Assembly: GCF_030013595.1 (NCBI RefSeq)
Contig: NZ_CP122768.1
DNA: 64,000 nucleotides
DNA from: Escherichia coli
Lineage (GTDB): Bacteria; Pseudomonadota; Gammaproteobacteria; Enterobacterales; Enterobacteriaceae
Strand: one strand, 5' to 3'
The notes below the pieces were generated by a model. The model had not been told where the DNA came from. It saw only the letters and a program-made list of their open reading frames with translations, and searched no databases. The position numbers were made by a program, and so were the translations under genes. Each line of letters begins with the position of its first letter. Within the stretch, counting starts at the first letter, position 1. Positions 1 to 29,171 of the stretch are shown piece after piece.

Positions 1-736
<736 letters not shown>

Positions 737-762
737 AACTTAGTTCGTTTTAAAGATTCTGC

Positions 763-787
763 AGACACTGTCTGCAGAATTCGAAAT
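763..787. repeat. Near-perfect 25-bp palindrome (ATTCTGCAGACA C TGTCTGCAGAAT) in the convergent nanQ/yhcG gap
   Basis: Read directly: 11-bp arms around a single central base; core CAGAC-N-GTCTG shared with the three palindromes inside yhcG; no flanking T-run. Confidence 0.6.
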
Positions 788-795
788 TGCTGAAA

Positions 796-1923
796 TTATC
801 GGCGTCTATAGCCTTCCTCTAGCACCGCCTGTGTTCGAACGAGTTCATCCGCGAGTCGTTTTTCATCAGGTAGTTGCATCTTATATTCACTCGCCAGAAC
901 GGTGTTAGGCAAACCAGCCAGTGCATAATGCGCTTCTCCGACTCCTTTCTCTGCACAGAGAATCAGACCGATGGGCGGATTTTCATCCGGTAGCGTCCAG
1001 TGCTCTTTGGCGTAGTTGAGATACATATTCATCTGTCCGGCATCGCTATAGCTAAATTTGCCCACTTTTAGATCGACGATTAGCAGGCAGCGTAAACGGC
1101 GGTGGAAAAACAGCAGATCGACCCGAAACCAGTTGTCATCAATGCGTAACCTTCGCTGCCGACCAACAAAGGCAAAATCATCCCCAAGTTCCAGCATGAA
1201 ATCCATCAGGTGGTTGATCAGCGCCTCCTCAAAATCGGATTCTGAGTATTCATCTTTCAATTCCAGAAATTCGAGCACAAAGGGATCGCGTATCGCCTGC
1301 TGCGGAAGAATATGCATCTCGGCAGGAGCGTGTTGTTGCAGCATGGCTGATTTATCATGTGACAGTAGTGTTCGCTCATAAAATTGGGTCGCAATTTGCC
1401 GCTCTAGCTGGCGGACAGACCAACCACAGCGGAGCGTCTCTTTTTCATAAAAGCTGCGGGCGTCAGCGTTTTTAACGGAAAGTAGACGGACGTAGGTGGA
1501 CCAGGGCAGGGGGAAAGATTTGGCAGACAGCGTCTGCCAAATCTTTGCCGATGGGAATTCTGCAGACGGTGTCTGCGGCATTCCCAATGGTGTTAATTCG
1601 CCAGACACTGTCTGGCGAATTTCAACATGTTGAAAAAAGAGGTAAAAAAGCCTCATTTGGCGTAAGTTTTTTGCAGAGAACCCACGCTTATACCTTAGAC
1701 TTAAATCCTTTGATAGTCGCTTGATTAGCTGCGCACCATACGCAGCCCTGGCCTCACCGCCTTGTTCAAATTCGACAATTCGTCGGCCAATTTCCCTGTA
1801 CGTCGCGGTCATTAACGCGTTAACGCTACGTACCGTTTCCGTTCGGGCGCTATCGACCAGATGAATAATGCCGTCGTGGATTTGCTGGTAGCCTGCTGTG
1901 GTTCTCTCTGAGAGCGATTCCAT
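796..1923 (-). CDS. yhcG: DUF1016 / PDDEXK nuclease-like protein YhcG
   Basis: 375-aa ORF; matches YhcG in length and sequence; C-terminal half contains a PD-(D/E)xK-like motif (…LLIVDLKVGKF…). Confidence 0.85.
   Translation of the reverse strand: MESLSERTTAGYQQIHDGIIHLVDSARTETVRSVNALMTATYREIGRRIVEFEQGGEARAAYGAQLIKRLSKDLSLRYKRGFSAKNLRQMRLFYLFFQHVEIRQTVSGELTPLGMPQTPSAEFPSAKIWQTLSAKSFPLPWSTYVRLLSVKNADARSFYEKETLRCGWSVRQLERQIATQFYERTLLSHDKSAMLQQHAPAEMHILPQQAIRDPFVLEFLELKDEYSESDFEEALINHLMDFMLELGDDFAFVGRQRRLRIDDNWFRVDLLFFHRRLRCLLIVDLKVGKFSYSDAGQMNMYLNYAKEHWTLPDENPPIGLILCAEKGVGEAHYALAGLPNTVLASEYKMQLPDEKRLADELVRTQAVLEEGYRRR
1517..1621. repeat. Three tandem hairpin palindromes inside the yhcG coding sequence (12-15-bp arms, 3-nt loops, shared CAGAC-NNN-GTCTG core)
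   Basis: Read directly: 1517-1543 GATTTGGCAGAC-AGC-GTCTGCCAAATC (perfect); 1553-1585 GGGAATTCTGCAGAC-GGT-GTCTGCGGCATTCCC (2 mismatches); 1595-1621 AATTCGCCAGAC-ACT-GTCTGGCGAATT (perfect). In frame, encoding a low-complexity segment (…TPLGMPQTPSAEFPSAKIWQTLSAK…). Confidence 0.7.
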
Positions 1924-2106
1924 TATCTGTCCCTTTTTATGGCGCTGTGTTGAATAATGGAATCAGCTATACGCCGGGCATCTGCCGGTAACAATCCAGA
2001 TGAGCGTATTACATTGGTTTTCTTCAGATTATGCGAGGCGCTTTCCAGAAAGAAAGGAGAATTTCAGCGCCGACTCTTTTCTGAGGAGGCGGCGCTGGGA
2101 CAGAGC

Positions 2107-3537
<1,431 letters not shown>

Positions 3538-6500
3538 TTACTGCGCCTGCACGCGCAACTCTGCTGCGCTACGACTACGGTGACCCAGCAGTGCTTTTAC
3601 ATCACTGGACTTCGGTTTAACCAGCGCAAATTTAGTGGCGAAGGTTGACCAGTTCGCCAGAATCTCTTCACCACGCTGAGAACCGGTATGCTGCACATGC
3701 TCGGTGATAAGTCCACGCAGATGCTCTTCATGGATCGCCAAATCGTCAACGCTTAAGACCTCGACCAGTTCCGGGTTAACGCGTTTGCGGAAATCGCCGC
3801 TTTCATCGAGAACGTAAGCGAAGCCGCCAGTCATGCCCGCGCCGAAGTTAACGCCGGTTTTACCCAGAATACAGACAATACCGCCCGTCATATATTCACA
3901 GCCGTTGTCGCCAATGCCTTCTACCACGGTGATAGCACCGGAGTTACGCACGCCGAAACGTTCACCCGCGCGGCCTGCGGCATACAGACGACCACCGGTC
4001 GCGCCATACAGGCAGGTGTTGCCGATAATACTTGCTTCATGGCTGCGGAAGGCTGAGCCAACCGGAGGGCGAATGGCGATTAAGCCGCCCGCCATGCCTT
4101 TACCGACATAGTCGTTGGCATCACCGGTCAGGTACAGTTCCACGCCGCCCGCGTTCCACACACCGAAGCTCTGGCCTGCGGTGCCGTTGAAGTACGCTTT
4201 GATCGGATCGGCTGCCAGACCCTGATCGCCGTGCGTCTGGGCGATATAGCCTGAAAGCGACGCGCCGACAGAACGGTCGGTGTTGCGAATATCGAACCAG
4301 AAGGTTTTGCTCTGACGCTCATCGACAAACGGTTTTGCCTGTTGCAGCAACTGTGCGTTCAGCAGGCCGTTATCAAACGGCGGGTTGTTTTCGGTACAGT
4401 AGAGCGCCTTACCTGGATGCGGCTCAGCGGTCTCCAGCAGTTTCGACAGCGCCAGTTTCTGCTGTTTGGCGGTGAAACCGTCCAGCTCTTTCAGCAGGTC
4501 GGTGCGACCAATCAGATCCACCAGACGCGTTACCCCCAGCTGTGCCATCAGCTCGCGGGTTTCACGGGCGATAAACTCAAAGTAATTAGTCACCTTGAAC
4601 GGCAGGCCGTGATAGTGATTCTTACGCAGTTTGTCATCCTGAGTTGCTACACCCGTCGCGCAGTTGTTCAGGTGGCAAATACGCAGATATTTACAGCCGA
4701 GCGCCACCATCGGACCGGTGCCGAAGCCGAAGCTTTCTGCGCCGAGAATCGCCGCTTTGATGATATCGACACCCGTTTTCAGGCCGCCATCGACCTGCAA
4801 ACGAATTTTATGACGCAAGCCGTTGGCAACCAGCGCCTGCTGGGTTTCCACCAGACCGAGTTCCCACGGACAGCCTGCGTATTTCACCGATGAAAGCGGG
4901 CTTGCGCCGGTGCCGCCGTCATAGCCTGCGATGGTGATTAAATCGGCATAAGCTTTCGCCACACCGGTCGCGATGGTGCCTACTCCCGGTTCGGACACCA
5001 GCTTCACGGAGATCATCGCTTTCGGGTTAACCTGCTTGAGGTCGAAAATCAGCTGCGCTAAGTCCTCGATAGAGTAGATATCGTGGTGCGGCGGCGGGGA
5101 GATCAGCGTCACGCCTGGCACGGAATAACGCAGTTTGGCGATGTACGGCGTGACTTTATCACCTGGCAACTGACCGCCTTCGCCCGGTTTCGCGCCCTGG
5201 GCGACTTTAATCTGAATGACGTCGGCATTGACCAGATACGCCGGAGTAACCCCAAAGCGACCGGAAGCCACCTGCTTGATGCGCGACACTTTGTTGGTGC
5301 CGTAGCGTGCCGGATCTTCGCCGCCTTCACCGGAGTTAGAGTTGCCGCCGATGCTGTTCATCGCTTCAGCCAGCGCCTCGTGGGCTTCCGGGCTTAACGC
5401 GCCGATAGACATCGCAGCGGTATCGAAGCGTTTAAACAGTTCGCTTGCCGGTTCAACATCAGCAATGTTGACCGCGTTTTCACCCGGCGTAATTGCCAGC
5501 AGATCGCGCAGCGTGGTTGCCGGACGCTCATTAACCAGCTTCGCGTATTCCTGATAGTCGCTGTACTCGCCGCTCTGTACCGCCTGCTGCAGTGTGCGCA
5601 CCACGTCCGGGTTGTAGGCGTGGTATTCGCCGCCGTGCACATATTTCAGCAGGCCGCCCTGGCTGATGGGCTTACGCGCCAGCCAGGCACGTTTCGACAG
5701 ATTCAGCAGATCCTGCTGGAAGTCTTCAAAGCTCGCCCCGCCAATGCGGCTAACAGCGCCCTGGAAGCACAGGCCTACGACATCATCGTGCAGACCGACC
5801 GCTTCAAACAGTTTCGAGCAGCGGTAAGAGGCGATGGTGGAGATGCCCATTTTGGACATGATTTTGTACAAGCCTTTGTTGATGCCGTTACGGTAGTTGA
5901 GCATCACGGTACGATAATCTTTGGCAATCGCGTGGGTGTCTACCAGGCGGCCCAGCGTTTCATAGGCAAGGTACGGATAAATAGCCGTCGCACCGAAGCC
6001 CAGCAACACGGCGAAATGGTGCGGATCGCGGGCGCTGGCGGTTTCGACGATGATGTTGGCATCGCAACGCAAGCTTTGATCGACCAGACGGGTCTGGATC
6101 GCGCCAACCGCCATCGGAGCCGGAACCGGCAGGCGATCTTTAGCGATATTCCGGTCGGAGAGCACCAGCAGCACGGTGCCGCTACGTACCATTTTTTCGG
6201 CTTTGTCGCACAGCTCTTTGACCGTCGCTTCGAGCGTGGTTTTGGTGACGTCAAAGGTTATATCCAGTGTATCTGCGCGGTAGTGCTCCTCTTTCATCGT
6301 CGTGAGCTGTTTGAAATCGGAGTAGAGCAGAATCGGCGATTTAAAACTTAAACGGTGCGCCTGGCCCTCTGCTTCACAGAAGACGTTCATTTCACGCCCG
6401 ATGCTGGTGGCGAGCGACATAACATGCGCTTCACGCAGTGGGTCGATTGGCGGGTTAGTCACCTGGGCAAATTGCTGGCGGAAGTAGTCGTAAATAATGC

Positions 6501-7998
6501 GCGGCTGACTGGAGAGCACGGCGAATGGGGTGTCGTCGCCCATCGAACCGACCGCTTCCTGACCGTTTTCGCCCAGTACGCGAATTACGGAGTCCAGCTC
6601 TTCCGCGCTGTAGTTAAACTGTTTCTGGTAGCTGGCAAGTGTGTCGTCGTCCAGTTCGCGGCTACCCACTTCTTCATCGGGCAGATCTTCAAACGGTACC
6701 AGTCGGCGGACGTTTTTCTCCATCCACTCTTTATATGGATGGCGGCTTTTCAGATCGTCATCAGTTTCTGCCGAGTGCAGAATGCGCCCACTGCGAGTGT
6801 CGATCACCATCAGTTCGCCTGGCCCGACGCGGCCTTTTTCGACCACTTCGTCAGGCTGATAATCCCAGATGCCGACTTCAGAGGCGCAGGTGATGAGCTT
6901 ATCTTTGGTGATGACGTAGCGCGCCGGACGCAGACCGTTACGGTCGAGGTTACAGGCGGCAAAACGACCGTCAGACATCACGATGCCTGCCGGGCCATCC
7001 CACGGCTCCATATGCATGGAGTTAAAGTCAAAGAAGGCACGCAGTTCCGGGTCCATATCCGGGTTGTTCTGCCAGGCGGGTGGTACTAACAGACGCATGG
7101 CGCGGATGATATCCATCCCGCCTGCCAGCAGCAGTTCCAGCATGTTATCCATGGAACTGGAGTCAGAACCGGTTTCGTTGACGAACGGCGCGGCGTCGTG
7201 CAGGTCAGGGATCAGCGGCGTCTGGAATTTATAGGTACGCGCACGCGCCCATTGGCGGTTACCGGTGATGGTGTTGATTTCACCGTTATGCGCCAGGTAG
7301 CGGAACGGCTGCGCCAGCGGCCAGCGCGGTACGGTGTTAGTGGAGAAGCGCTGGTGGAACAGGCAAATGGCCGATTCCAGACGCAGGTCCGCAAGATCCA
7401 GATAAAAGCGCGGCAGATCCGCCGGCATACACAGACCTTTATAGATGTTCACCAGATTCGACAGGCTACAGACGTAGAAGTCTTTGTCGGCTTCGAGACG
7501 CTTTTCAATGCGGCGGCGGGCGATAAACAGACGGCGCTCCATATCGCGCGGACGCCAGCCTGCCGGGGCGTTCACAAAAATTTGCTCAATGCGTGGCAGA
7601 GAGGAGAGGGCGATTTCACCCAGCACGCCTTCGTTGGTGGGGACATCACGCCAGCCCACAATCGATAAGGTTTCGCGTTGCAGCTCTTCTTCAACGATGC
7701 GGCGTGCGGCAGCGGCGAGTTCAGGATCTTTATTCAGGAAGAGCATCCCGACGGCGTAGTTTTTCGCTAAACGCCAACCGCGCTCCTGCGCAACGATGCG
7801 AAAAAAGCGATCCGGTTTTTGTAACAGCAAGCCGCAACCGTCACCGGTTTTACCATCGGCGAGAATCGCGCCACGGTGCTGCATGCGGGCCAGTGCGTGT
7901 ATTGCAGTACGCACTACCTTGTGGCTAGGTTCGCCTTCTATGTGGGCGATCAGGCCGAAACCACAGTTATCCCTCTCAAGGGATTTATCGTACAACAT
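3538..7998 (-). CDS. gltB: Glutamate synthase (NADPH) large subunit
   Basis: Long ORF (track start 8106); canonical 1486-aa protein begins at [15 protein letters not shown] (ATG at 7998), amidotransferase Cys follows; the ORF track over-extends upstream. Confidence 0.95.
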
Positions 7999-8672
7999 AT
8001 CGTGAACCTCCCCCAGGCTCTGCGGGAACCCCACTTCCGAACCGCTGCGCACGGGCACAGAAAGAGCGTGGCGACGGGGTTTGCGTGTCATACGCGCGCC
8101 TCGCATTCGCCCCCTTGTTGTCCTTTTCGCATCGGTTAATACGGTGAAGAGGGGATCTCAATTACTGCATAAATATGATGAGCAGGCTGCTCATCCAGAA
8201 AGCTTCCAGCGGATTTCCAACTTATCGGGAAAGCTGATACAGGTCAAATGGCAAGCTTATTGGTACAGAAATGTGCTTTAGCGCAAAATTCTTTATTAAA
8301 TGGCTGAAATTAAAGTGGATTTTATCTTTAAGGCTAAAAGGGAAGTCGTTAGAGAAACAGTCAATTCCTGACTGTCATAAAGGCGTGTTAACCCTTATCC
8401 TGCCTTGAACTGACGAGAAAACCAGCATTTTATACTGCCTTAATTGGTAATGACGTTTCATGCTACTGTTTTTGCCTAAAATCCATAAGGAGATAAAAAA
8501 ATCTGACACAAGATAAGCAAAAGTGATTTATGTGATTATGCATGAAATTTCGGTAATTTTGATTGATTATGCAGTTGATAAAAGCAGGCCGGGACGATTG
8601 ATCCAGGTCATCGCCGAATTGAGCTAAAAATGGCAGGCTTTGGCCTCTTTTCAAGGCGCGGTCTATCAGATT
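7999..8672. promoter_or_regulatory. Divergent gltB / yhcC control region: long AT-rich leader and promoter region
   Basis: About 670 bp of AT-rich non-coding DNA between divergent starts; gltBD is known to have a long leader with Lrp/IHF/CRP sites, but individual sites were not mapped here. Confidence 0.4.
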
Positions 8673-9602
8673 ATGCAGTTACAGAAATTAGTCAATATGT
8701 TTGGTGGTGATCTCACCCGTCGTTATGGGCAAAAGGTGCATAAGCTGACGCTGCACGGCGGTTTTAGCTGCCCTAACCGTGACGGTACCATCGGGCGTGG
8801 TGGCTGCACATTCTGTAATGTGGCCTCGTTTGCCGATGAAGCGCAGCAACATCGTTCCATTGCCGAACAACTGGCGCACCAGGCGAATTTAGTTAACCGC
8901 GCTAAACGCTATCTGGCCTACTTTCAGGCGTATACCAGCACCTTTGCGGAAGTTCAGGTGCTGCGTTCTATGTATCAGCAGGCGGTGAGCCAGGCCAATA
9001 TTGTCGGTTTGTGTGTTGGTACCCGCCCGGACTGCGTGCCGGATGCGGTGCTGGATCTGCTTTGCGAATATAAGGACCAGGGTTACGAAGTGTGGCTGGA
9101 GCTGGGGCTACAAACCGCCCACGACAAAACGCTGCATCGCATCAATCGCGGTCATGATTTTGCCTGTTATCAGCGCACGACGCAGCTGGCGCGTGAGCGT
9201 GGGCTGAAGGTGTGTTCTCACTTAATTGTCGGCCTGCCTGGCGAAGGGCAGGCTGAATGTTTGCAAACGCTGGAGCGAGTGGTTGAAACTGGCGTGGACG
9301 GCATAAAGCTGCATCCGCTGCATATTGTGAAAGGCAGCATTATGGCGAAAGCCTGGGAAGCGGGGCGTTTGAACGGTATTGAACTGGAGGATTACACGCT
9401 CACTGCCGGAGAAATGATTCGCCATACGCCACCGGAAGTGATCTACCACCGCATTTCCGCCAGCGCCCGTCGCCCGACGCTGCTTGCTCCTCTGTGGTGC
9501 GAAAATCGATGGACGGGAATGGTCGAGCTGGATCGCTATCTGAATGAACATGGCGTACAGGGATCGGCGCTGGGACGTCCGTGGCTACCTCCAACTGAGT
9601 AG
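8673..9602 (+). CDS. yhcC: Radical SAM family protein YhcC (TIGR01212-like)
   Basis: ORF track start 8640; canonical 309-aa protein starts at MQLQKLVNMFGG (ATG 8673); radical SAM Cys motif CPNRDGTIGRGGCTFC. Confidence 0.85.
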   Translation: MQLQKLVNMFGGDLTRRYGQKVHKLTLHGGFSCPNRDGTIGRGGCTFCNVASFADEAQQHRSIAEQLAHQANLVNRAKRYLAYFQAYTSTFAEVQVLRSMYQQAVSQANIVGLCVGTRPDCVPDAVLDLLCEYKDQGYEVWLELGLQTAHDKTLHRINRGHDFACYQRTTQLARERGLKVCSHLIVGLPGEGQAECLQTLERVVETGVDGIKLHPLHIVKGSIMAKAWEAGRLNGIELEDYTLTAGEMIRHTPPEVIYHRISASARRPTLLAPLWCENRWTGMVELDRYLNEHGVQGSALGRPWLPPTE

Positions 9603-9697
9603 GTCGTTGAGGGGAATTCCGCATTTCTCACACAATTTATAACGTAACTGTCAGAATTGGGTATTATTGGGGCAGGTTGTCGTGAAGGAATTCCCTA

Positions 9698-12034
9698 ATG
9701 AAGCAAATTCGTCTGCTGGCGCAGTATTATGTTGACCTGATGATGAAGTTAGGTCTGGTGCGCTTCTCAATGTTGCTGGCGCTGGCCCTCGTCGTTCTTG
9801 CCATTGTGGTACAAATGGCGGTAACCATGGTGCTGCATGGTCAGGTCGAAAGCATTGATGTTATTCGTTCTATCTTCTTTGGTTTGCTGATTACGCCGTG
9901 GGCGGTCTACTTTCTATCGGTGGTCGTCGAGCAACTGGAGGAGTCACGGCAACGTCTGTCACGGCTGGTGCAAAAACTGGAGGAGATGCGCGAGCGCGAT
10001 TTGAGCCTCAACGTTCAGTTAAAAGATAATATTGCCCAGCTAAATCAGGAAATCGCCGTTCGTGAAAAAGCGGAAGCAGAACTGCAGGAAACCTTCGGCC
10101 AACTGAAAATTGAAATCAAAGAGCGCGAAGAGACACAAATTCAGCTCGAGCAGCAATCCTCATTCTTACGTTCCTTCCTTGATGCTTCACCCGACCTGGT
10201 TTTTTATCGTAACGAAGATAAAGAGTTTTCCGGCTGTAACCGCGCGATGGAGCTGCTGACCGGAAAAAGCGAAAAACAACTGGTTCACCTGAAACCTGCT
10301 GATGTTTACTCACCGGAAGCCGCTGCGAAAGTCATTGAAACCGATGAAAAAGTGTTCCGTCATAATGTGTCACTGACCTATGAGCAGTGGCTGGATTATC
10401 CCGACGGACGCAAAGCCTGCTTTGAAATCCGTAAAGTGCCGTACTACGACCGCGTGGGTAAACGTCACGGTTTGATGGGCTTTGGTCGCGACATTACCGA
10501 GCGTAAGCGGTATCAGGATGCACTTGAACGCGCCAGCCGCGACAAAACGACGTTTATTTCCACCATCAGTCACGAATTGCGTACACCGCTGAACGGTATC
10601 GTCGGCCTGAGCCGCATTCTGCTGGATACCGAACTCACCGCCGAGCAGGAAAAATATCTCAAAACCATCCATGTTTCGGCCGTCACGCTGGGGAATATCT
10701 TCAACGATATTATCGACATGGATAAGATGGAACGGCGTAAGGTCCAGCTTGATAATCAGCCGGTTGATTTCACCAGCTTCCTTGCCGATCTGGAAAATCT
10801 CTCCGCCTTGCAGGCGCAACAAAAAGGATTGCGCTTTAACCTGGAGCCTACGCTGCCATTACCGCATCAGGTCATTACCGACGGGACGCGTTTACGGCAG
10901 ATCCTGTGGAATCTCATCAGTAACGCCGTCAAATTCACCCAGCAAGGCCAGGTTACCGTGCGCGTGCGCTACGATGAAGGCGATATGCTGCATTTTGAAG
11001 TGGAAGACTCTGGTATCGGCATTCCGCAAGATGAGCTGGATAAAATCTTCGCCATGTATTACCAGGTGAAAGACAGTCATGGCGGTAAACCTGCCACTGG
11101 CACCGGTATTGGTCTGGCCGTTTCTCGTCGTCTGGCGAAAAATATGGGCGGCGATATTACGGTTACCAGCGAACAGGGCAAAGGTTCAACCTTTACGTTG
11201 ACGATCCACGCACCGTCGGTAGCAGAAGAGGTCGATGATGCGTTTGATGAAGACGATATGCCTTTACCGGCGCTGAATGTGCTGCTGGTGGAAGACATTG
11301 AACTGAACGTGATTGTTGCGCGTTCTGTGCTGGAAAAATTAGGTAACAGCGTTGATGTCGCCATGACCGGCAAGGCGGCGCTGGAGATGTTTAAACCGGG
11401 CGAATACGACCTGGTATTGCTGGATATTCAGTTGCCAGATATGACCGGGCTGGATATCTCTCGTGAACTGACGAAGCGTTATCCGCGCGAGGATTTACCG
11501 CCGCTGGTGGCCTTAACCGCTAACGTGCTGAAAGACAAACAAGAGTACCTCAATGCTGGAATGGATGATGTGCTGAGTAAGCCGCTTTCTGTTCCGGCGC
11601 TAACCGCGATGATCAAGAAATTCTGGGATACCCAGGATGATGAGGAAAGTACGGTGACGACAGAAGAGAACAGTAAATCAGAAGCATTGCTCGATATTCC
11701 CATGCTGGAACAGTATCTCGAACTTGTAGGACCGAAGCTGATCACCGACGGGTTAGCGGTGTTTGAGAAGATGATGCCGGGCTATGTCAGCGTGCTGGAG
11801 TCGAATCTGACGGCGCAGGATAAAAAAGGCATTGTTGAGGAAGGACATAAAATTAAAGGTGCGGCGGGGTCAGTGGGGTTACGCCATCTGCAACAGCTGG
11901 GTCAGCAAATTCAGTCTCCTGACCTTCCCGCCTGGGAAGATAACGTCGGTGAATGGATTGAAGAGATGAAAGAAGAGTGGCGTCACGACGTAGAAGTACT
12001 GAAAGCGTGGGTGGCAAAAGCCACTAAAAAATGA
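9698..12034 (+). CDS. arcB: Aerobic respiration control hybrid sensor histidine kinase ArcB
   Basis: 778-aa ORF with transmembrane N-terminus, PAS domain, H-box (SHELRTPLNG), receiver and HPt domains. Confidence 0.95.
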   Translation: MKQIRLLAQYYVDLMMKLGLVRFSMLLALALVVLAIVVQMAVTMVLHGQVESIDVIRSIFFGLLITPWAVYFLSVVVEQLEESRQRLSRLVQKLEEMRERDLSLNVQLKDNIAQLNQEIAVREKAEAELQETFGQLKIEIKEREETQIQLEQQSSFLRSFLDASPDLVFYRNEDKEFSGCNRAMELLTGKSEKQLVHLKPADVYSPEAAAKVIETDEKVFRHNVSLTYEQWLDYPDGRKACFEIRKVPYYDRVGKRHGLMGFGRDITERKRYQDALERASRDKTTFISTISHELRTPLNGIVGLSRILLDTELTAEQEKYLKTIHVSAVTLGNIFNDIIDMDKMERRKVQLDNQPVDFTSFLADLENLSALQAQQKGLRFNLEPTLPLPHQVITDGTRLRQILWNLISNAVKFTQQGQVTVRVRYDEGDMLHFEVEDSGIGIPQDELDKIFAMYYQVKDSHGGKPATGTGIGLAVSRRLAKNMGGDITVTSEQGKGSTFTLTIHAPSVAEEVDDAFDEDDMPLPALNVLLVEDIELNVIVARSVLEKLGNSVDVAMTGKAALEMFKPGEYDLVLLDIQLPDMTGLDISRELTKRYPREDLPPLVALTANVLKDKQEYLNAGMDDVLSKPLSVPALTAMIKKFWDTQDDEESTVTTEENSKSEALLDIPMLEQYLELVGPKLITDGLAVFEKMMPGYVSVLESNLTAQDKKGIVEEGHKIKGAAGSVGLRHLQQLGQQIQSPDLPAWEDNVGEWIEEMKEEWRHDVEVLKAWVAKATKK

Positions 12035-26228: not shown

Positions 26229-27488
<1,260 letters not shown>

Positions 27489-27535
27489 TTGTCTGAGAGC
27501 TGGCAGCCCCGTTCGCGGGGCTACCGCCAGACCAC

Positions 27536-27815
27536 TCATTTTTTCGGTTTAGTGTAGCTACGCATCAACTGCGTTCTGTCGATAAACTCATGGGTCTGCG
27601 GATCATGGTAGCGAGATGGCCAGATAATCCAGGGGTCAGTTCCCAGGGCTTTCGCAATAATCATCTCTCCTTTCGGCCAGGGGCGCGATAATGCGTTCGC
27701 CAGCGTTGAGGAACTCAAACCATTTCTGCGAGATTCCGCCGCCATTGACGTTCCCTTTTTTGCGCAAACCCGCAATGATGTCAGCGGGATGCCAGTCAAT
27801 GAAATTACTTTCCAT
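27536..27815 (-). pseudogene. sfsB: Ner-like DNA-binding regulator SfsB/Nlp, frameshifted by one extra base in an A6G3 homopolymer
   Basis: ATG at 27815 encodes MESNFIDWHPADIIAGLRKKG, then the frame runs to a stop at 27636-27638 (about 59 aa); the rest of the protein (…TSMAAESRRNGLSS…YTKPKK) is in the adjacent frame (track ORF 27536..27847). The interval is 280 nt, one more than the 279 expected for 92 codons plus stop. Confidence 0.6.
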
Positions 27816-28043
27816 CTTTCCTCACTCCTTAAGTTAGTCGCTTTCATTCAGAACATTTCTTCTGTCGGGCATCACTATACTCCTGATGGCGTATTGTTCT
27901 AAAAAGTTCCTGTAAAGAGTGTGAATATTCAGAATATATAAAGATACATACACTGGTTTTTCAGGCGTTATTGCGCTGAATAAGTGTTTTTATGGAATTT
28001 ACTGGAATCATCCCGCGCACTGCGCGGGATGAGGGGGAGGGGA

Positions 28044-29015
28044 TTAACGATCGCGTTGAACAGCGATGTGCGCGAGGCCGATGAGTGCTTCTCGCCACGG
28101 GGTGTCCGGGAGCACCTGTAACGCTGCGATGGCTTTGTCTGCTTCTTCCTCGGCACGCTGACGCGTCCATTCAAGAGATCCACAAGCGTTCATTGCTTCC
28201 AGAACCGGTTCCAGAAGATGGCGACCGTTACCCTGTTCGATGGCGGTACGAATCATCTGTGCCTGTTCTGGTGTGCCATGATGCATTGCATGCAGCAGCG
28301 GCAGCGTCGGTTTACCTTCGTTCAGATCGTCGCCGACGTTTTTACCTAACTGTTCGCCATCGGCATTGTAATCGAGTAAATCGTCGATCAACTGGAAAGC
28401 AGTGCCGAGATAGCGCCCATAATCCTGCAGGCCTTTCTCCTCCTCCGGCGTACAGCCAGCCAGAATACCGGAACACTGCGCGGCAGCCTCAAACAGACGC
28501 GCGGTTTTGCTATAGATAACGCGCATGTAGTTTTCTTCAGTGATGTCCGGATCGTTAACGTTCATCAGTTGCAGAACTTCACCTTCTGCGATGACGTTTA
28601 CGGCTTCTGACATGACTTCCAGCACTTTGAGCGAGCCGAGGCTGGTCATCATCTGGAACGCGCGGGTATAAATAAAATCGCCTACCAGCACGCTGGCGGC
28701 ATTGCCAAATGCGGCGTTGGCGGTAGCTTTACCCCTGCGCATATCTGATTCATCCACAACGTCGTCGTGCAGCAGAGTCGCCGTGTGGATAAACTCGATC
28801 AGGGCAGCAATGGTGACATGCGCATTTCCCTCATAGCCAACAGCTCGTGCAGCCAGTACAGCAATCATCGGACGAATACGTTTACCGCCGCCGCTGACGA
28901 TGTAATAGCCTAACTGATTGATCAGTTGGACGTCGGAATTAAGCTGCTCAAGGATTGCCGCATTAACACCCGCCATATCTTGCGCGGTTAACTCATTGAT
29001 TTTTTCTAAATTCAT
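28044..29015 (-). CDS. ispB: Octaprenyl diphosphate synthase
   Basis: 323-aa ORF with two trans-prenyltransferase Asp-rich motifs (DDVVD, DDLLD). Confidence 0.95.
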   Translation of the reverse strand: MNLEKINELTAQDMAGVNAAILEQLNSDVQLINQLGYYIVSGGGKRIRPMIAVLAARAVGYEGNAHVTIAALIEFIHTATLLHDDVVDESDMRRGKATANAAFGNAASVLVGDFIYTRAFQMMTSLGSLKVLEVMSEAVNVIAEGEVLQLMNVNDPDITEENYMRVIYSKTARLFEAAAQCSGILAGCTPEEEKGLQDYGRYLGTAFQLIDDLLDYNADGEQLGKNVGDDLNEGKPTLPLLHAMHHGTPEQAQMIRTAIEQGNGRHLLEPVLEAMNACGSLEWTRQRAEEEADKAIAALQVLPDTPWREALIGLAHIAVQRDR

Positions 29016-29171
29016 CGCAAAAGCCGGGCTTTTCGCCCCGATTACCTTACTGTGAACAAAGGCAACTTAGGGTTTATGGTTAGGAATATAGGGTGATTGT
29101 ACTGAAAAAATGGCACAGATAAACGTTACCGTACAAGTTGTGTTTTTTTCTTCGTGTATTGACTGTAGCAC

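Follow-up and report, generated by a model that had tools for sequence, protein, structure and literature searches.

The small regulator gene sfsB (nlp) is interrupted in the window, the 64-kb stretch of Escherichia coli DNA analysed here, by a single extra adenine, which probably reflects a miscounted homopolymer in the source assembly's consensus and is absent from the organism itself. The organism would then carry the intact 92-codon sfsB of its clade, reading CGC AAA AAG GGA and encoding SfsB/Nlp, a small Ner-like helix-turn-helix regulator, and the extra A would have arisen as a consensus homopolymer-length error in the assembly. Three observations speak for this reading: the run of six A (A6) is a singleton, the clade carries five (A5), and the terminal branch leading to the window holds homopolymer changes only. 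As to the cause, we infer that an error in base-calling or consensus is more likely than slippage during replication in the organism. An earlier note on this DNA had offered sequencing error and pseudogenisation as the two explanations; both still stand, with the evidence leaning towards error.

One added base divides the SfsB domain between two frames

Measured from the ATG at 27815 to the end of the stop codon (TGA) at 27536, sfsB spans 280 nt as against 279 in the intact gene, bearing out the earlier note's count of one nucleotide over 92 codons plus stop (Table 1). The same note had placed the N terminus of SfsB in one frame, starting from ATG 27815, and the remaining helix-turn-helix portion in the adjacent frame, and the open reading frames agree. 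The 59-aa ORF begins MESNFIDWHPADIIAGLRKKG before losing the frame (NVNGGGISQ...); its first 20 residues are native, G21 is likewise encoded unaltered, and the 38 residues beyond it are out of frame. A 103-aa ORF at 27536..27847 on the minus strand contains ...KKGTSMAAESRRNGLSS...YTKPKK. Removing one T at 27756 yields a 279-nt ORF encoding the full 92-aa SfsB, so that five A do restore the 92-codon frame, as had been predicted.

At least 1000 public contigs carry a protein named SfsB that is exactly the repaired 92-aa translation, a case of homology and not of chance. The repaired protein contains a complete HTH_35 domain (PF13693, Ner-type) at residues 7-81, scoring 117 bits against Pfam. As written, no single polypeptide carries the complete domain, which is divided between two fragments: the 59-aa product matches HTH_35 profile positions 1-16 only, at 22.6 bits and thus under the Pfam cut-off of 25 bits, and the fragment starting at Met24 matches profile positions 18-74 at 79 bits. 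Because neither fragment has the whole of HTH_35, the extra A, if real, would inactivate the gene.

The gene order murA (26229-27488, plus strand), sfsB (minus strand) and ispB (28044-29015, minus strand), with murA convergent with sfsB, recurs in the RefSeq annotation of four E. coli genomes, and by both position and sequence we assign the locus as the sfsB/nlp orthologue. SfsB/Nlp of E. coli K-12 (92 aa; WP_000445413.1; the clade allele is WP_000445407.1) occupies the same locus between murA and ispB, whereas in the window one added A splits the ORF after codon 20. An SfsB/Nlp orthologue would be expected to bind DNA and, at high copy number, to stimulate sugar fermentation. In the literature, SfsB/Nlp is a 92-aa transcriptional regulator of the Ner-like type, and BglJ-RcsB activates its promoter (PMC3950696). 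Terminator and promoter scans around sfsB in the window gave nothing above chance: the one sigma-70-like match compares with 0.9 expected by chance and is by itself no evidence of function, and the terminator scan did not call the GC-rich hairpin, which is without a T-tract. This hairpin may nonetheless act as a terminator common to murA and sfsB.

Table 1. Features at and around sfsB in the window
Feature	Position	Strand	Remarks
sfsB (nlp) coding region as written	27536..27815	-	280 nt; reading frame shifts by +1 past codon 20
59-aa truncated product from the native start	27636..27815	-	From the ORF list
Downstream frame from Met24, 69 aa (MAAESRR...YTKPKK)	27536..27745	-	Rest of the domain without helix 1; putative product
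A6 run with the extra base (T6 on the plus strand)	27756..27761	-	From alignments and difference lists; GGG (CCC 27753-27755) unchanged
Shine-Dalgarno AAGGAG	27825..27830	-	9 nt upstream of the native ATG; kept in all aligned relatives
Sigma-70-like promoter match TTTAGA-18-TATAGT	27874..27903	-	Upstream of sfsB; 9/12 positions
GC-rich hairpin AGCCCCG-CGAA-CGGGGCT	27505..27522	.	Between convergent murA and sfsB; seen in the sequence
T7 run, ispB-rplU spacer	29143..29149	.	Second of the window's two private differences; relatives have T8

The extra base falls in an A run specific to the clade

Alignment with HCP5S3_I2 (the closest complete genome), K-12 and strain A34 placed a single gap in the A run of codons 19-20. 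The earlier note had mapped the frame switch to an A6G3 homopolymer, and the corresponding plus-strand motif CCCTTTTTT does lie at 27753-27761, but only its A part has changed, from A5 to A6, and the G3 part is unaltered. At this site K-12 and 2012C-4221 read AAGAAGGG (CGC AAG AAG GGA ACG); HCP5S3_I2, LCP30S3_I5 and the window's clade read AAAAAGGG (CGC AAA AAG GGA ACG; A5); and the window reads AAAAAAGGG (CGC AAA AAA GGG AAC; A6). The A5 run of the clade is the product of a synonymous AAG>AAA change at Lys19 in the ancestral CGC AAG AAG GGA, and it is recent and clade-specific. The tract reads AAGAAG in both of the other lineages sequenced, has five A throughout the clade members examined and reaches A6 in the window only; too short, and constant among those members, it does not have the character of a phase-variable contingency locus.

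The A6 allele is a singleton among the genomes searched

Comparison of the homopolymer length with other sfsB alleles, which the earlier note had proposed as a check, gave A5 for the nearest relatives and for each of the four clade assemblies, AAGAAG in K-12 and 2012C-4221, and six A in 0 of 5,425 complete genomes. The locus itself was recovered with a 401-nt query from 5,425 of 5,426 complete E. coli genomes, none at 100% identity. (The one other genome gave no match of any kind to a 25-kb core-gene query, an unusual result in E. coli.) A 71-nt query placed over the run had no exact match in the 5,425 complete genomes; its best matches, at 98.6%, were two A5 pig isolates, and the next tier, at 97.2%, included K-12 MG1655 (AAGAAG), a result consistent with AAGAAG being the common E. 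coli allele. In exact-pattern scans, the A6 35-mer was absent both from metagenome contigs and from the species-representative genomes of GTDB.

The exact 59-aa product is recorded once, as STJ09127.1 on the NCTC contig UGCU01000001.1, and an exact-product look-up found no short-read assembly that gives it. This contig comes from another lineage (~99% identity), reads AAGAAAGGG at the site and contains ~25 indels in 6 kb, leaving murA, yhbE and ibaG in pieces; being both of another lineage and error-rich, it is therefore uninformative about the window. A6 was also absent from the contigs that have the 69-aa C-terminal fragment with the window's allele, in which the causes were a W8* nonsense change, other indels in error-rich assemblies, and an N-gap or contig end.

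Near-identical relatives leave only homopolymer changes on the window's branch

Over 64 kb, the window differs from HCP5S3_I2 by 16 substitutions, two one-base homopolymer indels (T5>T6 at 27756 and T8>T7 at 29143-29149) and a window-only insertion of ~705-711 bp, and the two sfsB genes are the same except for the extra A. Each of the two indels, the former being A5>A6 at 27756-27761 on the coding strand, is a one-base change confined to a homopolymer. When the differences were polarised with 2012C-4221 and K-12, nine substitutions fell on the HCP5S3 branch, and six substitutions together with both indels fell on the window branch. At the resolution of this one relative, the data would fit an artefact and a real mutation alike.

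Closer relatives were retrieved by using the window's exact protein variants as look-up keys, the window-side substitutions including MurA D283E, DacB G345V and YhcG W43R. The exact variants are listed in many index blocks (39 for MurA-E283, 128 for DacB-V345 and 129 for YhcG-R43), so the six window-side substitutions are clade markers and not private to the window. All four independent clade assemblies that span sfsB, recovered through MurA-E283 and DacB-V345, carry A5 and an intact 92-aa HTH_35 gene: Logan SRR30668406 (L021), GCA_020301305.1 (L027) and the short-read Logan SRR30668371 (L028), each with T8 at the second run, and the long-read GCA_030347985.1 (L029), with T7 there and, within 21 kb, four more homopolymer deletions when set against the window. 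Across window positions 16229-37488, L021 differs by one substitution private to itself, at a site where the window equals HCP5S3_I2, and by exactly the two homopolymer lengths. Window positions 1-11923 are identical to clade member L026, and L022-L025 differ only by their own private changes. The clade comparison covered ~39 kb of the window, all within its first 43.6 kb, and over this length the window's terminal branch has 0 private substitutions and 2 one-base homopolymer indels, 1.4 kb apart.

The second of these indels, in the ispB-rplU spacer, is T8 in HCP5S3_I2, 2012C-4221, K-12, L021, L027 and L028, and T7 in the deletion-prone L029. T7 also occurs in 44 of 5,422 complete E. coli genomes from scattered lineages, with ST648, UM146, RM9872-C1 and turkey, chicken and pig ETEC strains among the carriers, T8 being the state of nearly all E. 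coli; the run is either hypermutable or a site of recurrent assembly error. The window contains 232 homopolymers of at least 5 nt, 230 of which agree with HCP5S3_I2, and no gene other than sfsB is broken in it.

Two further lesions were seen among the clade members. L028 and L029 have in common two SNPs (window 41408 and 41447) and a G6>G5 frameshift in yhbE (EamA-family transporter), at a position homologous to window ~30044; the yhbE change looks like a genuine homopolymer frameshift marking a sub-clade. In L023 (Logan SRR5470991), a 14-bp insertion homologous to window ~9110 splits mnmL/yhcC (radical SAM) into products of 130 and 182 aa.

Consensus error, recent mutation and recoding as possible causes

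Two indels without a substitution are a combination that real mutation rarely leaves and long-read consensus error typically does. Real mutation yields many more substitutions than small indels, and in coding sequence of E. coli defective for mismatch repair the ratio is still ~7 to 1 (6.02 substitutions versus 0.85 small indels per CDS; PMC8510543). Treated as independent draws at ~7-10 substitutions per indel (ratio from PMC8510543), the probability that both private changes are indels is ~1-2%. Long-read errors, by comparison, are mostly homopolymer indels and pseudogenise genes (PMC12007338). Artefacts of this kind can be seen at this locus in public assemblies, among them L029 with its homopolymer deletions and T7, and they speak for the consensus-error reading. 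The interruption resembles the 'gene-fragmenting errors' of long-read assemblies (PMC12007338) in that a one-base homopolymer change breaks a conserved gene, is absent from near-identical short-read strains and is accompanied by a second homopolymer difference and 0 substitutions. It departs from that class in its low density, the implied error rate being a modest 2 in about 39-64 kb, and in that one of the two changes, the one in sfsB, is an insertion, whereas deletions predominate among nanopore homopolymer errors (PMC12007338). Also counting against an artefact, both changes lie where real mutations are tolerated, in a non-essential gene and an intergenic run, and a genuine frameshift, yhbE G6>G5, segregates in the same clade. 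A rough Bayesian tally, the inputs of which were assumed and not measured (one complete assembly in about four prone to errors at this density, and typical within-clade divergence), gave ~0.7 for an artefact at the sfsB base.

The alternative that the base is genuine, a very recent loss-of-function mutation private to the isolate in which slippage on A5 added one A, is possible but the less likely of the two. A two-step path to it is visible (AAGAAG > AAAAAG > AAAAAA), the indel rate is known to climb with homopolymer length (PMC8510543), sfsB is dispensable and has independent natural lesions in clean short-read assemblies, the segregating yhbE frameshift sets a precedent within the clade, and the window is otherwise of good quality. 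This reading has to accommodate, however, the unexpected pairing of two private homopolymer indels with 0 substitutions in ~39 kb, and an A6 allele found in no other genome, clade member or metagenome searched. If the mutation is real, the isolate would make a 59-aa peptide with the first 16 HTH_35 positions, and, with SfsB function gone, the gene would count as a young pseudogene.

Two other ways of reading the differences were rejected. A mutator strain had been considered on account of the seemingly transversion-rich differences from HCP5S3_I2, most of which lie on the other branch or are common to a clade of more than 100 assemblies; the terminal branch, with 0 substitutions, therefore offers no mutation spectrum to interpret. 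The proportion of synonymous to nonsynonymous changes was likewise of no use as a test for error: both branches are mixed, as expected for very recent divergence, and the SNPs are clade markers.

It is very improbable that leaky frameshifting, whether tRNA-Lys slips by +1 on AAA AAA G or RNA polymerase slips on A6, restores part of the wild-type SfsB. A runs are slippery for E. coli tRNA-Lys (as in dnaX, A AAA AAG) and, where A/T runs are long, for RNA polymerase; the GGG that follows the run here is among the less used glycine codons of E. coli; and if one base is passed over after CGC AAA AAA and reading resumes at GGA ACG TCA ATG, the result is exactly RKKGTSM. Efficient transcriptional slippage in E. 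coli, however, involves runs of ~8-9 or more, for which A6 is short, and by inspection the shift site has no in-frame stop codon, no clear Shine-Dalgarno-like element 3-6 nt upstream and no strong upstream Shine-Dalgarno of the prfB type. The frameshifted arrangement occurs in 0 of 5,425 genomes and at no clade locus, and because A6 is conserved nowhere, it cannot be a selected recoding site. In the manner of programmed frameshift sites (prfB, +1; dnaX, -1), the site in the window has a lysine-codon A run at which a one-base slip would restore the full protein; unlike these, it is not conserved in relatives and has no stop codon or evident stimulator, and, unlike in dnaX, the direction needed is +1 and not the -1 of A AAA AAG. 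That A6 is real and that sfsB is a leaky pseudogene, regenerating wild-type SfsB by a +1 or transcriptional slip on CGC AAA AAA GGG, has a negligible place in our assessment; were it true, AAG>AAA followed by the insertion would have turned a constitutive small regulator into one with few-per-cent expression, an incipient switch.

Consensus error is the preferred reading, and the interruption belongs in any case to the well-known class of homopolymer frameshifts, artefactual or mutational, with nothing new about it. It carries little biological weight and matters for annotation hygiene: sfsB should not be scored here as a lineage pseudogene without read-level confirmation. If real, it would add one more private loss of a dispensable, poorly defined regulator for which several losses are already public. 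Using private amino-acid variants as look-up keys and then counting substitutions and homopolymer indels on the terminal branch provides a cheap, read-free triage of 'frameshifted' genes.

Natural sfsB lesions and error-rich assemblies at the locus

The W8* change (codon 8, TGG>TGA) is found in Logan ERR10176756 (L008) and 19 similar places, ~20 contigs with the neighbourhood otherwise intact, and is a genuine sfsB loss inherited within a different E. coli lineage. Other lesions comprise an added A giving AAGAAAGGG (L007), 2-bp deletions (L017 and L018) and a 2-bp deletion of GC (L019). These natural loss alleles resemble that of the window in truncating the gene near the N terminus, but they belong to other lineages and are different events, none of them A6. 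An indel hotspot at codons 17-21 was considered and rejected, because the search for the lesions, based on a cluster at 90% identity around the 59-aa product, recovers only frameshifts near codon 20 into the same frame, and the clustering follows from it. The 69-aa fragment is called as a gene in other assemblies in which the N terminus is disrupted.

In RefSeq strain A34 (L003, NZ_CP028741.1), the essential genes ispB and murA are both flagged 'frameshifted', and murA, ispB or yhbE is fragmented in the NCTC assemblies UGCU01 and UGAW01 as well as in JBQXDC01, indicating that frameshift artefacts are common at this locus in deposited genomes. The records L006 (the UGCU01000001.1 contig), L009 and L010 have murA/ispB either 'frameshifted' or split into several ORFs.

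Other differences between the window and its relatives

The window-only insertion lies between deaD and mtr at 56681-57385 (~705-711 bp) and is IS200-like, with an ORF at 56773..57282 that matches an IS200-type Y1 transposase (PF01797, 126 bits). HCP5S3_I2, 2012C-4221 and K-12 lack the insertion and have a deaD-mtr spacer of 153 nt. In 2012C-4221 (L014, positions 8406-9359, homologous to window ~41-43 kb), a helix-turn-helix gene replaces yhbX (phosphoethanolamine transferase), and this replacement is a small island between tRNA-Leu and argG, adjoining the tRNA.
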